DNA from: a virus
IMG/VR virus record: IMGVR_UViG_3300032240_001872
Location: 15,750-79,749 of that record
DNA length: 64,000 nt
Strand: one strand, 5' to 3'
Shown here: positions 3,008 through 64,000 of the stretch, piece by piece
How the letters are laid out: each line of letters starts with the position of its first letter
Position numbering within the stretch: position 1 is the stretch's first letter
The notes under the pieces: model-generated
Database searches by the model: none
Told to the model about the DNA's origin: nothing
Seen by the model: only the letters and a program-made list of their open reading frames with translations
Position numbers and translations under genes: made by a program

Positions 3008-6000
3008 ATGAACGAATTAATTGAATACATTGTAATTGTACACAACATTGAAGACAAGCCGGCACTACACGACGAAATTATAAATTCCGGCGGTAGCGAA
3101 TGCGTGCCTGATCGAGCTGTTGATTGCTGTTTAAATCCAACTGCCAGTCGTTCCACTCATTACATGATGACTGAAGCAGAAGCTGAATTATTAAGGCAAG
3201 ATCCAAGGGTGTGGGAAATAACTAGAACCATGAAGGATTTAGGAATCGAAGCTGTACCTGCTGGCGGTTACACACAAACTTCTAATTTATGGAGTAGAGG
3301 TTATACAACTGCTCAAGGAGACAACAATTGGGGCATCTTAAGGGCAGTGGAAGGTGTTCAAAGATTTCAGTGGGGAAGTGACAGTCCTCAACAATTATTC
3401 GATGTATCAGCAACTGTGAATATTCCATTTAGCGGCACTAACGTTGACGTAGTAATTGTAGATGGCCACGCTGATCCGGCGCACCCAGAGTACGCGGTTA
3501 ACTCGGATGGTAGTGGTGGGAGTCGGTATAATCAATTTAACTGGTTAAGTCTTAGTAACGGACTTTGGGGATCGACTAACGGCAATTACATATACACCCC
3601 ATATCGTCAATCCCAAGGAGCGACCGTGGCCTTAGAATCCAACAATATGCACGGTTCTCACGTCGCTGGCATTGCATGTGGTAATACTAACGGTTGGGCA
3701 AGGAGCGCCAACATCTACAACATATATCCATATGGCAATGATAGCAATGCTTTTAACTTTACCACTAATCAGTTTATTAACGGATACTTTTTTGAGTACA
3801 TAAAATATTGGCACCAGAACAAGGCGGTTAACCCTGCGACTGGTACTAGAAATCCGACCATTATAAACAACAGTTGGGTCATTCAAAAAGTTATTGATAT
3901 ATCTACTATCAGTTCGGTTACCTACAGAGGAATTACTTACACAGCACCGTCGGGCGGATTTAGTGTAGCTACCCTTAATGGTTATGGTTTTCCAACTTAT
4001 AGTAATACTCAGGTTAGAATACTATACCGATATCCTGCATATGAATCACAATTACAAGACTGTATTAATGCAGGAATCATAGTAGTCAGTGCCGCTGGTA
4101 ATTATTCTACAAAGATAGCCAGAGACGATCAATCTACAACTGATCCTGATTATAATAATAGTCTTGTAACTTCTGGAACGACATATTACTATAATAGAGG
4201 AACATTTACTACAGTTTCTAATGGTATTGTAGTTGGTGCTCTAAGTTCTTCCTACATTGATATCAAATCAGGATATTCTGAAACAGGTCCTAGAATCGAT
4301 GTATGGTCTCCTGGTTCTTACATTACAAGCTCAGTTTTTAATAATACCACCTACAGCGGCGCTGTTGCTGACACTAGAAATAGCAATTACTATCAGGTTA
4401 AGATTAACGGAACATCAATGGCAAGCCCGCAGGTCACAGGACTGTTAGCATGTTTGTTAGAGTTATTCCCAACAACTACTCAAGCAGATGCACAACAGTA
4501 CTTAATCGACCACGGTAAAGAAGGCACTATGCAGGACGGCGGTTATAACGTTGTCAACCCGCTATACGACACCGGACTACTTCAAGGTGCACCAAATAGA
4601 ACCTTGTATGCATATTGGCCGCCTGCGCCTACTGCAACTGTGGCATTGCCTTCAACAACTATCAAAACAGACACTGTGGCAAAATTTACTCCCGTAGTAG
4701 GATCAGGCGGAGTAGGACAATTGGTTTATACCATCAGTCCTGCTCTGCCCTTAAGTTCCTTAGATGGTACTGCACAATGTTGGATTGAAGCAATAGCCGG
4801 AAGAACTGATGTAGCCTACTTTCATTTAGTATCTGCAACGCCAGTCGATAACTTTAAAGTAGGAGACGGAATCTTTGGAGCAGGGATAACAGATGGTTCA
4901 GTGTTACAATTTCCAACAGATTCAGGCAAGCTAACCTGGACCATCTCGCCAGGTTATACTTCTAACGTAGGTAGTGCTGGTAGTCCAGTTTACTTTGATA
5001 CAGGCTTACATATTAATAATAAGACTGGCGAAATTACAGGAAGAACTGTGAGAACTCAAGTGTCGACTACTTATACTGTTACAGTTACAGGAGGAGGCGT
5101 GTCAGCGACTGCACAGTTTTCTTTAGCGATCACTCCAGGTTCGTCATATGGTATCACACGTAATGTAGCCTACGGATCTGATGCGATACAACAATGTGAC
5201 TTCTGGGAAGTGCAGAGTGGTACCCCAAAAGGAGTTATCGTTTGGGTTCACGGTGGCGGATGGGTAGGGGGTGCCAAAGGACCTGTCGGGTTTACAACAA
5301 GTCAGGGGGGCAACTGGATTAATGATGAAGATCAAATAAGACAACTGGTACAGAAAGGCTATTATGTTGTTAACTGCAATTATCGATTGGCTACAACTGA
5401 TACTAATTATATTCCTACAGGTGGTAGTAGTACCGCTAACTATCATCCAGCCGGCGCTGATGATATCGAAACTATCATAAGATTTTGTACGACCGCCAAC
5501 GCCGGGTCTAGTTATAGTTCAGTATGGAATACAATTTCAGCTAGAGCCAACACCTATGGACTCATCATTGCTGGAGAAAGTGCAGGCGGACACTTGGTAG
5601 CTTATGCTGGTATGAAGTATATCAATGATTACGGACAAGGTCCTATCACTGCTATTTGCCCAGTAGTAGGTCCTATGGATTTAGACCATGTAACACTGGA
5701 AAATATTGGGCCAACGAACATAACTCAGACTGCTAAGGATATAGTTAATAATTATGTAAACGCTGTTAATAATAGTACAGCGTTACAAGCGGCTTCACCT
5801 AGATACAAGTATGGATCTCTGGCAAGTCCTGGACCATGGCGTACTGCTGTAAAAAATTCTGGTGTGAAATTTATTTTTGTAAACAACATCAATGATACAT
5901 TAGTTCCGTCAATTCTCACTGACAATTTCATTAACACTCTACAATCAGAATTAGGAAATAATAGAGTTAAGTATATCAAACTAGATGAAGGTGGCGATTG

Positions 6001-60166: not shown

Positions 60167-60355
60167 ATGACAAAACGATCTTATATACTTGTTCTTCTTG
60201 CTCTGCTAACTCTATCACTACAGGGATGTCTTGCTACGGGCCGTCAGTGTCGCTCATATGACTACTGTCTAGAGCGTGATGGTCCACGTCAATATATACG
60301 TGCTCCTGATGGATGGGGTGGTAAGTATTGTCAGCAGAACCCGGAGAATTGTTGA
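60167..60355 (+). CDS. small putative lipoprotein
   Basis: Basic N-terminus, hydrophobic stretch, lipobox-like LQGC; four further Cys. Confidence 0.55.
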   Translation: MTKRSYILVLLALLTLSLQGCLATGRQCRSYDYCLERDGPRQYIRAPDGWGGKYCQQNPENC

Positions 60356-61323
60356 TGCAAAATATGAAAAAAGGTATTATTCAGAGTAGAGGTCTTGGTG
60401 ATCTCATTATAGCTCTACCCATTGCCAAGTACTGGTATGATCAAGGTTGGGAAGTCTACTGGCCCGTATGTGATCCCTTCTATGATCAAATGCGTGAGGT
60501 AGCTCCCTATGTATCGTGGATTAGTGTGCCCGTTGATCCAGCTGGACACTTCTTTTATGAAAACCCCGTTAGACAGCTTGAGGCTCTAGGGGTTGAACCA
60601 GATGACGTCATCTATCTATATCAGTATTTGAGTAGTCATCCAGAGAGGACTGTTCCCAGTCACTTTGCACAGTTCAAGTTCGATCAGTACAAGTATGCTA
60701 TGGCTGAGTTACCATTTAGCATGAAGTGGGATCTAGCTGACTGTATACGCAGAAACCCCGTTGCCGAATCAGCACTATATGAGCAGGTTGTTGCACAGGA
60801 TCGCTATATGGTCTATCAAGGTACTGCAAGTGATCTAGAGTATCCTATTGATCTCTCTGTTATCGAAGAGGGAGTTCAGTGTATCGAGCTTCGTGAACTG
60901 GCTGGCTACTCTGTATTCGATTGGCTCAAGGTCATTGAAGGAGCCGAGACTGCTATCCTAATCGATAGTGTGTTTGCTAACCTAATCGATCAGCTCAAGC
61001 TATGGTCAGGTCCAGACCTATACTATATGCGCAAGTGGAACCGGCGTGTAGATGGTAATCCAGTCTTACTTGGCCCATGGACATTCGTAGAAGTAGATGA
61101 TCCCCCGGGCATGCAGGTACAGAGCATAGTGGACAAAAACCCCGTTGCCGAACCTAGGCCACAAGTGCAGAAAACCCCGTTGCCGAACCCTGGGGGCGGT
61201 GCAGGGCAGACCTATACTCCATATGGCTCTAGTGCAGTCAAAGGACCTACCAGCTTTCTAGATAAAACTAAGAAGCCCAATACAGCACAGAATCTTCTAG
61301 CAGGGCTAGGACTCAAGCAGTAA
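60355..61323 (+). CDS. GT9-like glycosyltransferase with P/G-rich C-terminal tail
   Basis: QSRGLGDLIIALPIA; FDWLKVIEGA..AILIDSVFANL. Confidence 0.6.
   Translation: MQNMKKGIIQSRGLGDLIIALPIAKYWYDQGWEVYWPVCDPFYDQMREVAPYVSWISVPVDPAGHFFYENPVRQLEALGVEPDDVIYLYQYLSSHPERTVPSHFAQFKFDQYKYAMAELPFSMKWDLADCIRRNPVAESALYEQVVAQDRYMVYQGTASDLEYPIDLSVIEEGVQCIELRELAGYSVFDWLKVIEGAETAILIDSVFANLIDQLKLWSGPDLYYMRKWNRRVDGNPVLLGPWTFVEVDDPPGMQVQSIVDKNPVAEPRPQVQKTPLPNPGGGAGQTYTPYGSSAVKGPTSFLDKTKKPNTAQNLLAGLGLKQ
60753..61189 (+). repeat. dispersed direct repeat AAACCCCGTTGCCGAA x3
   Basis: Copies at 60753-60768, 61137-61152 and 61172-61187; partial AAAACCCCGTT at 60560-60570. Confidence 0.85.
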
Positions 61324-61342
61324 ATCTGCTATAATGTATTAA

Positions 61343-61420
61343 GGGCCCCTAGCTCATGTTGGTTAGAGCAGTGGACTCATAATCCATTGGTGCCGTGTTC
61401 GACTCACGGGGGGCCCACCA
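61343..61420 (+). tRNA. tRNA with CAT anticodon, probably tRNA-Ile2 (lysidine-modified)
   Basis: Acceptor stem GGGCCCC/GGGGCCC+ACCA; anticodon arm GTGGA-CTCATAA-TCCAT; T arm CCGTG-TTCGACT-CACGG. G1-C72 is paired (not an initiator); C4-G69/C5-G68 as in TilS substrates. Extended -10 TGCTATAAT upstream. Confidence 0.92.
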
Positions 61421-61444
61421 TTAAACCCTGAACCGAAAGTGAAT

Positions 61445-61714
61445 TACGGCCGCGCGGTGTAGTTACTGATATAGCGAACCGGTGCTGTAGCTAAGGACAT
61501 GTCATAGACACAGCGTTGAAGCTTACTGTAGCGATACAGCAAGGATGAGCTGGACACCTTAATCAGTGTTGTCTCGGGCGACTAGGTTAACGTAGCGTCT
61601 GTATCAGCAGAACTAGGGCCCCAAAGTACGGGCGCAATCTACGAGGGGAACATGTCCGGACCTTAGCGGAGCATGTTTACCTACCCGGCCTGTCACGGCC
61701 ATCCAAACCAATTA
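61445..61714 (-). ncRNA. candidate ~270-nt structured ncRNA
   Basis: Perfect sigma70 promoter immediately upstream on the minus strand; nested long-range helices; no plausible ORF. Confidence 0.55.
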
Positions 61715-61720
61715 TAGACG

Positions 61721-61749
61721 ATTATAGTTCAAATTGACCCTTGTGTCAA
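61721..61749 (-). promoter_or_regulatory. perfect consensus sigma70 promoter
   Basis: TTGACA(61749-61744)-17-TATAAT(61726-61721). Confidence 0.8.
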
Positions 61750-61766
61750 CCAGGGTATTCCAAATC

Positions 61767-61841
61767 TGTGGCGAAAAAACAACACCTGGAGTGCCGGCGG
61801 TGTGGCAAAAAAGCCACGGCAGGTGTGGCGAAAATACAACG
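61767..61841. repeat. three operator-like imperfect palindromes TGTGGC-N6-(A/G)C(A/C)AC
   Basis: Copies at 61767-61784, 61801-61818 and 61824-61841, between divergent promoters. Confidence 0.7.
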
Positions 61842-61883
61842 GATCCAAAGACCCTACGGTTTAGTCGGGCATTAAACGAGTGG

Positions 61884-61912
61884 TTGACAAATGGTAAAAC
61901 CGGTGTTATACT
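61884..61912 (+). promoter_or_regulatory. sigma70 early promoter
   Basis: TTGACA-17-TATACT; ATG 6 nt downstream (leaderless). Confidence 0.8.
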
Positions 61913-61918
61913 ATACAC

Positions 61919-62257
61919 ATGAACTTAGAAAAGCCCACTCGTAAAAAGCGCACCGATCGTAATCACATCATATACGAGCTCATCGTAAATGGTAAGAACT
62001 ACATTGGGGTGACAGCAAAGACAGAGTCTACTATACAGAAGAGCGTGAAGGCTCGTGCCGCAAAGCATTTCTATCGTGCTAAGAAGGAAAACAAAGACTG
62101 GCTCTTGTGCGCAGAGCTTCGTCAACTCAACAGCAAAGACGAGATCGAGATCTTGATTCATGCTGTGATCAGAGGTAAAGCAGAAGCGCATAAGACAGAG
62201 GTTGCAATTCGTAGGGCAGTCAAGCCCGTGTTGAACACAGACGTTAGAGGAGATTGA
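61919..62257 (+). CDS. GIY-YIG-like nuclease domain protein
   Basis: IIYEL...NYIGVT, R...H, AHKTE, P.LN. Confidence 0.6.
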   Translation: MNLEKPTRKKRTDRNHIIYELIVNGKNYIGVTAKTESTIQKSVKARAAKHFYRAKKENKDWLLCAELRQLNSKDEIEILIHAVIRGKAEAHKTEVAIRRAVKPVLNTDVRGD

Positions 62258-62470
62258 ATGAAGCACTATACCTACAAAGGGTTTGAATACCATACTTGGG
62301 ACGATGTAGAAGAGGACAATATCAAGATGTTCCACGAGTGCCATAAGGCGGGCCGGGAGATCAAGATGCCCAGGGAGTTCTACAATCACAGTCCCTACAG
62401 TCTAGTCAAGTATGATGAGTTTGTGGCTTTTGTACAACAGATCGAACTGGTAGAGTTTGTCAGGGGTTGA
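62258..62470 (+). CDS. hypothetical protein
   Basis: 70 aa; SD GAGGAG. Confidence 0.65.
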   Translation: MKHYTYKGFEYHTWDDVEEDNIKMFHECHKAGREIKMPREFYNHSPYSLVKYDEFVAFVQQIELVEFVRG

Positions 62471-62521
62471 CAGACTGGTAAAACCGTGTTATACTAGACA
62501 CTTAAACACTAAAGGAGCAGA
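62467..62521 (+). promoter_or_regulatory. sigma70 early promoter + shared 24-bp leader/RBS
   Basis: TTGACA-17-TATACT; ACACTTAAACACTAAAGGAGCAGA at 62498-62521. Confidence 0.8.
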
Positions 62522-62523
62522 CT

Positions 62524-63228
62524 ATGTTTAAATTACTTTCCACAGCTAACCCCAAGATCCAAAAGGGTACAAAGATGGGCTATTTGTCGTTCATCTTGCA
62601 TCTTGCTCCAGCAGACTTGAGCGGGCGTGAAGTATGCCCCAAGCGGACAGCTGGTTGCACGAGCGCATGCCTTAATACAGCAGGACGCGGCGGCATGTTC
62701 AAGAAGGGCGAGAACACCAACATGATCCAAAAGGCTCGCATTCGCAAGACCAACTATTTCTTTGAAGATCGTGACAGCTTCATGAAGGATCTGTATCACG
62801 ACATTAATAAAGCCATCAAGTTCGCGGCTAAGGCAGGCTTGACGCCCGTGATCCGTTTGAACGGTACATCAGACTTGAGCTGGGAGAAGTACACGGTGGG
62901 CACTACGGACATGAACTTGTTCCAATTGTTCCCTACAGTACAGTTCTATGACTACACTAAGGTATTGGGTCGTAAGACTAAGATGTATCCCAACTATCAC
63001 TTAACGTTCAGCCGTGCTGAGTCTAACGATGCTGATGTGGGCATGGCTCTTGCGCAAGGTATGAATGTTGCGGTAGTATACGATGAGATCCCAGCGGGCA
63101 TGCATAGTGCCGATGAAACTGATTTGCGCTTCTTGGATCCCAAGGTTGGCTTGATTGGTTTGAAGGCTAAGGGTCGTGCTAAGAAGGACTACAGTGGGTT
63201 CGTGATTCGTTTGAAGGCAGTAGCATGA
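62524..63228 (+). CDS. phage gp88-like protein
   Basis: LHLAPA..SG..VCP....GC..ACL; IRLNGTSD; QFYDYTK; NYHLTFS; DLRFLD; GLKAKG. Confidence 0.6.
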   Translation: MFKLLSTANPKIQKGTKMGYLSFILHLAPADLSGREVCPKRTAGCTSACLNTAGRGGMFKKGENTNMIQKARIRKTNYFFEDRDSFMKDLYHDINKAIKFAAKAGLTPVIRLNGTSDLSWEKYTVGTTDMNLFQLFPTVQFYDYTKVLGRKTKMYPNYHLTFSRAESNDADVGMALAQGMNVAVVYDEIPAGMHSADETDLRFLDPKVGLIGLKAKGRAKKDYSGFVIRLKAVA

Positions 63229-63452
63229 AGCTGAATGAAGTACTACAATGGGTAGGAGCTGTCTTCATCATAGCAGGGCACGTATTCAACGCCGTAGGGC
63301 CCGGTGCCTATCCATGGAACATCGTGGCATTCTTCTTGGGAACATGCGCATTCTTAGCTTGGACCGTACGTGTGGCGAATAAGCCACAGATGGCTGTTAA
63401 CGTTGTGGCATTAGCCCTAGGGCTTGTAGGGTTATATAACGCCTTTGGTTGA
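63225..63452 (+). CDS. small membrane protein
   Basis: Three hydrophobic segments in 75 aa. Confidence 0.65.
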   Translation: MKLNEVLQWVGAVFIIAGHVFNAVGPGAYPWNIVAFFLGTCAFLAWTVRVANKPQMAVNVVALALGLVGLYNAFG

Positions 63453-63503
63453 CAGGTTTTACCTTTGATGCTATACTATACACTTAAACACTAAAGGAGC
63501 AGA
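63449..63503 (+). promoter_or_regulatory. sigma70 early promoter + shared 24-bp leader/RBS
   Basis: TTGACA-17-TATACT; identical leader at 63480-63503. Confidence 0.8.
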
Positions 63504-63504
63504 T

Positions 63505-63798
63505 ATGTTATCAATTAGCGAAGTTAACTCAGCGATCATGACCCAGGTCTGGACGGACGTAGAACTCCGTAGCATGATCGATTCAATACAGTGGAACCGT
63601 AGCCGCCTGGCTCAGCGAATCAAACGAAGCATCGTGGTGGGCGACAATGTCCAGTTCACCAGCTCTAAGACAGGACGTCAGATGCGTGGCTTCGTTACCA
63701 AGATCGCCATCAAGTATGTGACAGTGAACACAGGCTTGGGACTTTGGAAAGTGCCGGCCAACATGCTGTCAGTGGTTGAGGAGTTAGAAACCGCGTAA
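63505..63798 (+). CDS. hypothetical protein (SH3/KOW-like C-terminus)
   Basis: VGDNVQF...GFVTKIAIKYVTV...WKVPANML; strong SD. Confidence 0.65.
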   Translation: MLSISEVNSAIMTQVWTDVELRSMIDSIQWNRSRLAQRIKRSIVVGDNVQFTSSKTGRQMRGFVTKIAIKYVTVNTGLGLWKVPANMLSVVEELETA

Positions 63799-63823: not shown

Positions 63824-63852
63824 TTGACAGATGGTTTAACCGATGCTATACT
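63824..63852 (+). promoter_or_regulatory. sigma70 early promoter overlapped by a 12-bp inverted repeat
   Basis: TTGACA-17-TATACT; ATAGCATCGGTT(63814-63825)/AACCGATGCTAT(63838-63849). Confidence 0.8.
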
Positions 63853-63858
63853 AGAGTT

Positions 63859-64000
63859 AAGTTAGAGATTAGGGGTTACCTACACCGCTAGGGCTCTGGG
63901 AAGATGACAATGTCGACGGATGTTGGTCTAGTCCAGGTCATGAAGGCAGGCCTTCGGGTGAAGCGGGCGGAGAATGTAGGAAGTAATGACCGTAGAGGCC
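63859..64000 (+). ncRNA. candidate structured RNA (may run past the window end)
   Basis: Downstream of a promoter; helices CCTACA/TGTAGG, CCGCT/GGCGG, ATGAC/GTCAT and a C(TTCG)G tetraloop. An open frame from 63904 is an alternative reading. Confidence 0.4.

Follow-up and report, generated by a model that had tools for sequence, protein, structure and literature searches.

Here, we report that the interval directly behind a transfer RNA (tRNA) gene in the genome of an uncultured phage holds a conserved, branched, structured non-coding RNA (ncRNA) of ~255 bases. The DNA analysed is a stretch of 64,000 nucleotides (nt), hereafter the window, which corresponds to bases 15750-79749 of the 79.7-kb IMG/VR virus record IMGVR_UViG_3300032240_001872; positions are window coordinates unless a homologous contig is named. 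We consider it probable that the RNA represents a new class of phage structured RNA, which occupies ~61421-61680 (core 61426-61677) of the plus strand immediately after the phage tRNA(CAU), is co-transcribed with it, is released by tRNA processing, and acts in trans. A preliminary description of the locus, made from the sequence alone, had proposed a structured ncRNA of ~270 nt without a known family, made on the opposite strand and shaped like a rod. A conserved, covarying fold and the lack of any Rfam match bear out the candidate itself, in another architecture than the one first drawn.

Relatives of the locus were gathered via the 331-amino-acid (aa) protein encoded upstream (in IMG/VR and in Joint Genome Institute (JGI) metagenomes), by DNA-motif scans, and via a 112-aa protein encoded downstream. 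Five distinct full-length copies of the interval were found, and every copy starts 5 nt past the encoded CCA of one and the same phage tRNA(CAU):

Window, 61418-61716
L002, 4272-4574: 91% identity over the RNA interval
L026, 3590-3888: 90% identity over the RNA interval
L003, 5105-5405: neighbouring protein 72% identical
L030, 3603-3900: neighbouring protein 63% identical

In addition, L106 is a 5'-truncated copy close to L026. The set of five leaves out 13 further protein relatives with 61-74% identity (P0003-P0006, P0008-P0011, P0013-P0016, and P0019).

The fold was obtained by RNAalifold from an ordinary (unfitted) MAFFT alignment of the five sequences, read on the plus strand. It consists of 14 nested helices and a variable hairpin, and is branched with two domains:

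61426..61677, plus strand: RNA core, 252 nt, helices P1-P14
61426-29/61645-48, plus strand: P1, closes the whole body (5' domain and 3' domain)
61431-34/61585-88, plus strand: P2, 5' domain
61440-41/61579-80, plus strand: P3, 5' domain
61444-61490, plus strand: arm P4-P5-P6, 5' domain
61495-99/61570-74, plus strand: P7, 5' domain
61500-03/61507-10, plus strand: P8, 5' domain, an invariant hairpin UGUC-AUA-GACA in the five homologues
61511-14/61549-52, plus strand: P9, 5' domain
61522-30/61535-43, plus strand: P10, 5' domain, a GNRA-capped, covarying stem
61531..61534, plus strand: GNRA tetraloop GCGA, caps P10
61554..61569, plus strand: variable hairpin, stem kept and sequence replaced
61591-95/61639-43, plus strand: P11, 3' domain
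61598-602/61607-11, plus strand: P12, 3' domain
61620-22/61630-32, plus strand: P13, 3' domain
61649-58/61667-77, plus strand: P14 hairpin, after P1
61678..61716, plus strand: 3' tail, unconstrained, varies in L026 and has a 10-nt deletion in L106

RNAalifold predicted 68 pairs on the unfitted alignment, 27 of which had both sides changed and the pair kept in at least one sequence. A covariance model built from the same alignment (R1) scored the five members at 214-325 bits, and a search of 0.9 Mb of related loci with this model returned nothing else above noise. On a model-fitted alignment, 93.2% of cells were standard pairs compared with a mean of 79.1% after shuffling (0/500 shuffles reached 93.2%), and 31/68 pairs were double-changed, as opposed to 1-8 in controls in which the 3' partners had been slid by 1-3 columns. 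The covarying pairs include 5/5 in P11, 6/10 in P14, 4/7 in P4, and 3/5 in P12; the weakest helix, P6, had 75% of its cells paired. The stem of the variable hairpin is ACAC/GUGU in the window and L026, UACCG/CGGUA in L002, and GUGAGA/UCUCAC in L003, and it is rewritten in a metatranscriptome variant (X1, see below). The covariation check proposed in the preliminary description thus found compensatory changes beyond both shuffles and slid controls, and we regard the fold, as judged by comparison of the homologues, as well supported for so few sequences.

Two long-range contacts are possible on top of this secondary structure, both of them candidates only:

61466..61471, plus strand: loop L6, CUGAUA, candidate kissing partner of L12
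61602..61607, plus strand: loop L12, UAUCAG, candidate kissing partner of L6
61613..61618, plus strand: CUAGGG, candidate pseudoknot partner of the P14 loop
61661..61666, plus strand: P14 loop, CCUUAG, candidate pseudoknot partner of 61613-18

The complementarity of L6 and L12 extends over six bases in the window clade and over five in L003. L030 has CUGAA with UUCAG, hence one position is swapped on both sides. For the putative pseudoknot, A-U is replaced by G-C and G-U by A-U in L003 and L030, and 93% of cells were paired. In the two candidate contacts together, 94% of cells were paired, versus 15-46% when slid; there was one double-change pair, and 47/500 shuffles reached the observed score, so the shuffle control was not decisive. 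The L6 and L12 loops could act within one molecule or between molecules.

We compared this fold with the six nested helices of the preliminary description. Their segments are present in the sequence (61446-61454/61694-61702; 61490-61496/61661-61667; 61496-61503/61649-61656; TAGAC with ATCTA; hairpin 61522-61543), but as a fold they did no better than shuffles: the minimum free energy (MFE) was -84.8 kcal/mol (z +0.55) on the minus strand and -89.1 kcal/mol (z -0.49) on the plus strand (single sequence, 200 dinucleotide shuffles). The hairpin UUGCUGUA/UACAGUAA, which corresponds to P10, was the sole survivor in the five homologues, and the GCGA tetraloop that had been noted on the plus strand is indeed present within it. 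The proposed closing helix (61446-54/61694-702) uses the 5' strand of P4, and its other partner lies in the 3' tail, which is variable in L026 and has lost part of its length in L106. The bases of UGCU/AGCA belong to the compensated helices P4 and P14, and those of UAGAU/GUCUA to P8 and P11; in GACAUGUU/GACAUGUC, the partners are two copies of the palindrome ACAUGU, one from P7/P8 and one from P14. Lastly, GCUAAGG/CCUUAGC is uncompensated in L003 and L030, where it is A>G at 61615 that compensates for the loop change U>C; this pairing was rejected in favour of the candidate 61613-18 with 61661-66. Because these helices clash with covarying ones, the architecture is branched, and the rod-like shape gave way to a multi-branched fold with two candidate long-range contacts.

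No known family accounts for the RNA. An Rfam search, as had been suggested, returned only the tRNA, both at the gathering score on the whole window and at E<=10 on 61200-62000; on the L030 locus (E<=10), the L003 locus (E<=1), and other loci, no family was matched besides the tRNA and its mirror image. Consistent with the preliminary description, neither ARAGORN nor Rfam (gathering score; E<=10) detected transfer-messenger RNA, RNase P, or signal recognition particle RNA.

Our reading also departs in strand from the preliminary description, which had the RNA made on the minus strand from a TTGACA-17-TATAAT promoter, as a rod-like, 6S-like decoy or a sponge. We consider this unlikely. The promoter is present as described:

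61749..61721, minus strand: sigma-70 consensus TTGACA-17-TATAAT, 12/12, faces the RNA and the tRNA

This perfect consensus is the only 12/12 sigma-70 match in 4 kb and points toward tRNA(CAU) at 61343-61420. Both hexamers are intact in L026 though 6/17 spacer bases differ, and the promoter is found in L002 and L106 as well. Moreover, most helices are Watson-Crick and can therefore form on either strand, and 7-8 cells are A-C on the plus strand, hence G-U on the minus strand (e.g. 61525/61540 in P10). Such pairs had been taken as support for the minus strand; they exist, but are outnumbered by 19-28 G-U cells on the plus strand, which turn into A-C mismatches on the minus strand. Within helices that show Watson-Crick swaps, the plus strand has 19 G-U cells versus 7 A-C cells. 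G-U pairs that a minus-strand reading would turn into A-C occur in P1, P3, P4, and P7; double changes maintain P4 and P7, which can form only on the plus strand.

Several further observations speak for the plus strand. The loop of P10 reads GCGA in four members (window, L002, L026, and L003) as well as in the variants from RNA libraries; L030 has GAGA, the sole change falling on the free N of GNRA; a minus-strand reading gives UCGC/UCUC, not GNRA. Unpaired positions are 36-38% A and 16-19% U, with 20 A versus 8 U among invariant unpaired columns, and the loops of a minus-strand RNA would be U-rich. On identical columns, the alifold energy was -57.2 kcal/mol for plus (structure conservation index (SCI) 0.70) versus -39.8 for minus (SCI 0.54), and on the unfitted alignment -45.4 (SCI 0.55) versus -29.8 (SCI 0.41). 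Helices that RNAalifold predicted on the minus strand only break in L003 and L030. L003 keeps the RNA (280 bits with R1) with no minus promoter within 500 nt, and has a plus-strand terminator at 5375-5390 (AGGCUC-UUCG-GGGCCU then UUUCUUUU). At the position of the tail, L030 likewise has a plus-strand hairpin and U-run (GGGCCC-UUU-GGGCC then UGUUUCCUU). By contrast, no minus-strand terminator was found between the RNA and 60000, nor in the tRNA. A 6S-like identity fits poorly as well, since Rfam gave no 6S match and the fold lacks a rod with a central bubble. The observations speak neither for nor against a role as an anti-defence sponge. Collectively, the GNRA loops, the G-U versus A-C counts, the A-rich loops, the alifold energies and SCI, and the terminators of L003 and L030 favour the strand of the tRNA; the RNA is likely, but not proven, to lie on the plus strand.

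We propose instead that the minus promoter acts on a plus-strand RNA. In the window clade, where it takes the place of the terminator of L003 and L030, it most likely drives antisense transcription or stops read-through. An antisense transcript or roadblock of this kind would modulate the RNA instead of encoding it. We also noted a leftward TTGAC(T/A)-17-TATACT promoter in L030 (3900-4025) and in L004 (about 5380-5510). The segment enclosed by it is short, shows loose similarity between L030 and L004, and possibly encodes a small peptide or RNA. The window clade is without this segment and without the terminator, and there the minus promoter abuts the RNA.

Three features on the side of the tRNA bear on how the plus-strand RNA would be made:

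61327..61335, plus strand: extended -10 element TGcTATAAT, 7 nt before the tRNA 5' end, from which tRNA and RNA are likely transcribed
61343..61420, plus strand: tRNA with anticodon CAU and encoded CCA end (ARAGORN; Rfam RF00005 at 57.1 bits)
61421..61425, plus strand: linker AUUAA between the CCA end and P1; UUAAA is invariant in all five homologues

The tRNA has G1-C72 and hence is not of the bacterial initiator type; it may be a CAU tRNA of the kind modified to read the isoleucine codon AUA, which it resembles. TG plus a perfect TATAAT occurs 7-8 nt before the tRNA in every relative (window, L002, L026, L003, L030, L004, and L005), so a plus transcript should start at the tRNA or 1-2 nt before it. 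The element was unlisted in the promoter scan because its -35 is weak. We infer that host RNA polymerase would start at this conserved TG-TATAAT and make the tRNA and the RNA as one precursor, from which maturation of the tRNA 3' end would free the RNA, in keeping with established processing by RNase E or Z and exonucleases. The freed RNA would fold into a compact multi-domain body in which, as the covariation indicates, P1 clamps the two domains and is followed by the 3' hairpin, with a GNRA loop in the 5' domain; the L6-L12 kissing loops and the pseudoknot of 61613-18 with the P14 loop may add long-range contacts. Such a fold might protect the RNA, its ends being guarded by P1 and P14 (or the terminator). 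In infection, the RNA would then act in trans as an accessory RNA, either as a protein scaffold or decoy or as an RNA-only assembly.

Alternatively, the interval might be a cis-acting 3' trailer whose only function is to serve the tRNA, be it by stabilising the precursor, defining the 3' end, or terminating transcription. The RNA is always directly behind the tRNA with a conserved 5-nt linker, and terminators close the unit in L003 and L030, as such a trailer would have it. Nevertheless, L005 and L032-L034 (58% protein identity) keep the tRNA at 96% identity without such a trailer, with ~60 nt in place of the RNA. The RNA is therefore dispensable for the tRNA itself, and a purely cis role is unlikely. 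Moreover, a trailer or terminator needs far less than ~70 conserved base pairs together with a GNRA loop and candidate tertiary contacts, and the window clade lost the terminator and kept the fold. We regard the trailer as a poor explanation, less likely than a minus-strand RNA.

The distribution of the RNA is patchy. It is single-copy in the window's own record, and it is absent from the related 331-kb record G001 and two other large related records. More than 60 further relatives found via the 112-aa gene had no copy. A search with the covariance model of 65 loci found via this gene recovered no further member, its only new match being 30 nt in L117/L118 that correspond to the GNRA hairpin. 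IMG/VR motif scans with four conserved blocks returned the same three contigs and chance matches (L019-L025 and L096-L111), which were rejected by nhmmer and R1; one chance match from a genome-contig scan, L181, was rejected by nhmmer. Behind their tRNA(CAU), L004 (5061-5527, 467 nt) and L117 (1868-2150, 283 nt; L118 is 96.8% identical) carry different non-coding inserts. Each has a GNRA-capped hairpin (GUAA in L004; GAGA in UUGUAGAGAUACAA, P10-like, in L117) and a plus-strand hairpin plus U-run. With filters off, R1 did not recover the L117 and L004 inserts, which may be other RNA cassettes or very distant members. In more distant relatives with tRNA Arg(UCU) (L122 1503-1750, L127, L136, L142, L149, and others), the spacer after the tRNA holds a conserved ~50-aa open reading frame (ORF) (MYQHPNPMDPFDG...), and these spacers were rejected as sites of the RNA. 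Given the patchy presence, the tRNAs without the RNA, and the alternative inserts, the RNA behaves like an accessory cassette, located at a hot spot just past the tRNA.

Instead of an RNA fold, the conservation might stem from a short protein encoded on the minus strand, or from an element that acts as DNA, such as an origin or an array of protein-binding sites; we consider this very improbable. A short distance downstream of the promoter, a minus-strand frame that crosses the antisense of P14 is open in the window (61613-61711, 32 aa), L002 (4480-4569, 29 aa), and L026 (3759-3893, 44 aa), but it has TTG starts only, close relatives differ at both of its ends, L002 has lost the internal ATG seen in the window, the substitutions are paired swaps and do not follow third codon positions, indels are of 1, 4, and 10 nt, Pfam gave no match, and a G-U preference on one strand is not expected of a DNA element. 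This 29-44-aa frame (...GKHAPLRSGHVPLVDCAR...), shared by three close members, we take to be a by-product of the conserved RNA. In agreement with the preliminary description, there is no credible ORF in the interval; 61421-61720 holds only short ones (37 and 32 aa, minus strand, GTG/TTG starts). Self-cleavage at the tRNA end by a ribozyme like that of hepatitis delta virus or of the hatchet type was dropped, with no Rfam match and a 5-nt linker preceding P1.

RNA libraries yielded variants of the RNA. Of the sequence words sampled from 61000-62300, 6-11% were present in four metatranscriptome runs from freshwater. In one run (X1), a 197-nt contig lies over 61439-61612 at a depth of 20; in another (X4), two contigs lie over 61491-61625 at depths of 41.5 and 16.6, with a contig end at 61642. 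Contigs of flanking genes have depths of 2-11.5. Among the variants, C61503>U occurs together with G61507>A, a compensatory change in the otherwise invariant P8, and U61523-A61542 in P10 becomes U-G, a change allowed on the plus strand only. Judging from adapter remnants (...GCTCTTCCGATCT before 61439 in X1 and AGATCGGAAGAGCGTCGTGTA after 61642 in X4), read 2 corresponds to the plus strand in the two runs. This hints at plus-sense RNA if the libraries are deoxyuridine triphosphate (dUTP)-stranded. The stretch 61660-61880 is uncovered by these contigs, which carries no evidential weight.

Several points weigh against a plus-strand RNA that acts in trans. The comparison covers no more than five distinct full-length sequences, and of the two alignments one is model-fitted; three of the five sequences are ~90% alike, hence many of the double changes trace to two lineages. 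Single-sequence MFE beat the 200 dinucleotide shuffles on neither strand, and the G-U/A-C count leans on helices that were first predicted on the plus strand. The window's own clade has no plus-strand terminator. Its minus promoter, perfect and 36 nt from the last helix, looks selected from comparison of the clade, and L030 and L004 have their leftward promoter ~100 nt beyond the plus terminators. The RNA-library contigs cannot prove transcription, strand, ends, or level. Lastly, the function we propose for the RNA is pure inference.

The RNA sits at the border between two gene arrangements. Minus-strand genes run up to 60021, followed by a plus-strand 64-aa ORF and the 331-aa gene (60328-61323). 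A 498-nt gap separates tRNA(CAU) from the next plus-strand gene (61919-62257), and to the right of the gap further plus-strand genes follow one another, every one of them preceded by a TTGACA-17-TATACT promoter (61884, 62467, 63449, and 63824). The right part of the gap contains two features:

61767..61841: three palindromic units of the type GTGGC(G/A)-A-rich-GCCAC, between two divergent promoters, not part of the RNA
61884..61912, plus strand: early promoter TTGACA-17-TATACT, serves the gene at 61919-62257, right edge of the non-coding interval; a unit repeated in all relatives

Two of the palindromes score as minus-strand terminator-like hairpins (61829..61813 and 61796..61780), although no minus-strand gene lies to their right. 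In the TG-extended early promoters (61884-61921, 62467-62526, 63449-63507, and 63824-63906), the ATG follows ~6 nt past the -10, e.g. TATACT ATACAC ATG at 61907-61921; this promoter-plus-start unit recurs in all relatives, and from this spacing the mRNAs would be leaderless or nearly so. The 112-aa protein encoded at 61919-62257 has a GIY-YIG-like N-terminus (IIYELIVNGKNYIGVT) and no Pfam or PHROG match. It is conserved at 70-99% in more than 60 IMG/VR contigs, usually just to the right of a tRNA for Met(CAU), Arg(UCU), or Leu(UAA).

The source is an uncultured freshwater giant (jumbo) phage. CheckV rated the window's record 22% complete, which implies a genome of some 350 kb; the related 331-kb record, G001, is rated 93% complete. 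Searches of GenBank phages gave tRNA matches only with the DNA of the region and no match with the neighbouring 331-aa protein. The family is so far confined to one narrow clade of uncultured lake phages, which limits the reach of our findings.

RNAs of at least 250 nt with complex folds are rare in bacteria and phages; historically they have been ribozymes and riboswitch-like sensors and, recently, self-assembling cages. We view the RNA described here as a new family in a known niche, that of orphan structured RNAs riding with phage tRNAs. An Rfam-negative class in the niche also occupied by GOLLD, ROOL, and T4 RNAC and RNAD strengthens the idea that phages launch accessory RNAs via tRNA transcription and processing. 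Its size of ~255 nt makes it a small, tractable object for probing and cryo-electron microscopy, and a convergent consensus promoter where relatives have a terminator offers a natural case for antisense control of such an RNA.

Of the known systems, 6S RNA, to which the RNA had been likened, forms an extended rod that is largely double-stranded and opens into a central bubble resembling an open promoter. Both are non-coding, a few hundred nucleotides long, and without an ORF. Unlike the 6S rod, however, the RNA behind tRNA(CAU) is branched, with 14 helices in two domains closed by P1 and a 3' hairpin, and 6S families (RF00013 and relatives) gave no match at the gathering score or at E<=10 on 61200-62000. 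RNAC and RNAD of phage T4 are about 120-140 nt long. They are non-tRNA RNAs of the T4 tRNA region with unknown roles (PMC3014915) and were confirmed by Northern blot as late RNAs (PMC9697503). The present RNA would resemble them in riding on tRNA transcription and processing, if it is co-transcribed as we propose; it is longer, nothing points to homology, and the likeness is one of description only.

GOLLD and ROOL come closest. Both are typically found next to tRNA genes of phages and prophages (PMC5737381), and form cages in which kissing loops and A-minor contacts hold the assembly together; the first GOLLD sequences came from lake metagenomes, and one studied GOLLD lies downstream of a Met-tRNA (bioRxiv 10.1101/2024.12.08.627333). 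Similar to GOLLD and ROOL (RF01998 and RF03087), our RNA is phage-encoded and has a complex multi-junction fold with loop contacts (two candidates here); it comes from a freshwater phage and lies directly downstream of tRNA(CAU), 5 nt after the tRNA in all five homologues. Neither RF01998 nor RF03087 matched at E<=10 (window and L030) or E<=1 (L003), and with no match at E<=10 we conclude that it is not a GOLLD or ROOL member. It is doubtful, and no better than a tentative suggestion, that the RNA is an undescribed compact "ornate" class cleaved from a tRNA-RNA precursor, in which the L6 and L12 loops would build an intermolecular RNA-only assembly or the RNA would disable a host factor; it would then be a small counterpart of the GOLLD and ROOL nanocages, a swappable cassette behind the tRNA in freshwater jumbo phages, with a convergent antisense promoter as its switch. 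Unlike GOLLD and ROOL, which are about 580-800 nt long with many multistem junctions, the RNA described here measures ~255 nt, with a core of 252 nt, and is known so far from one narrow phage clade.

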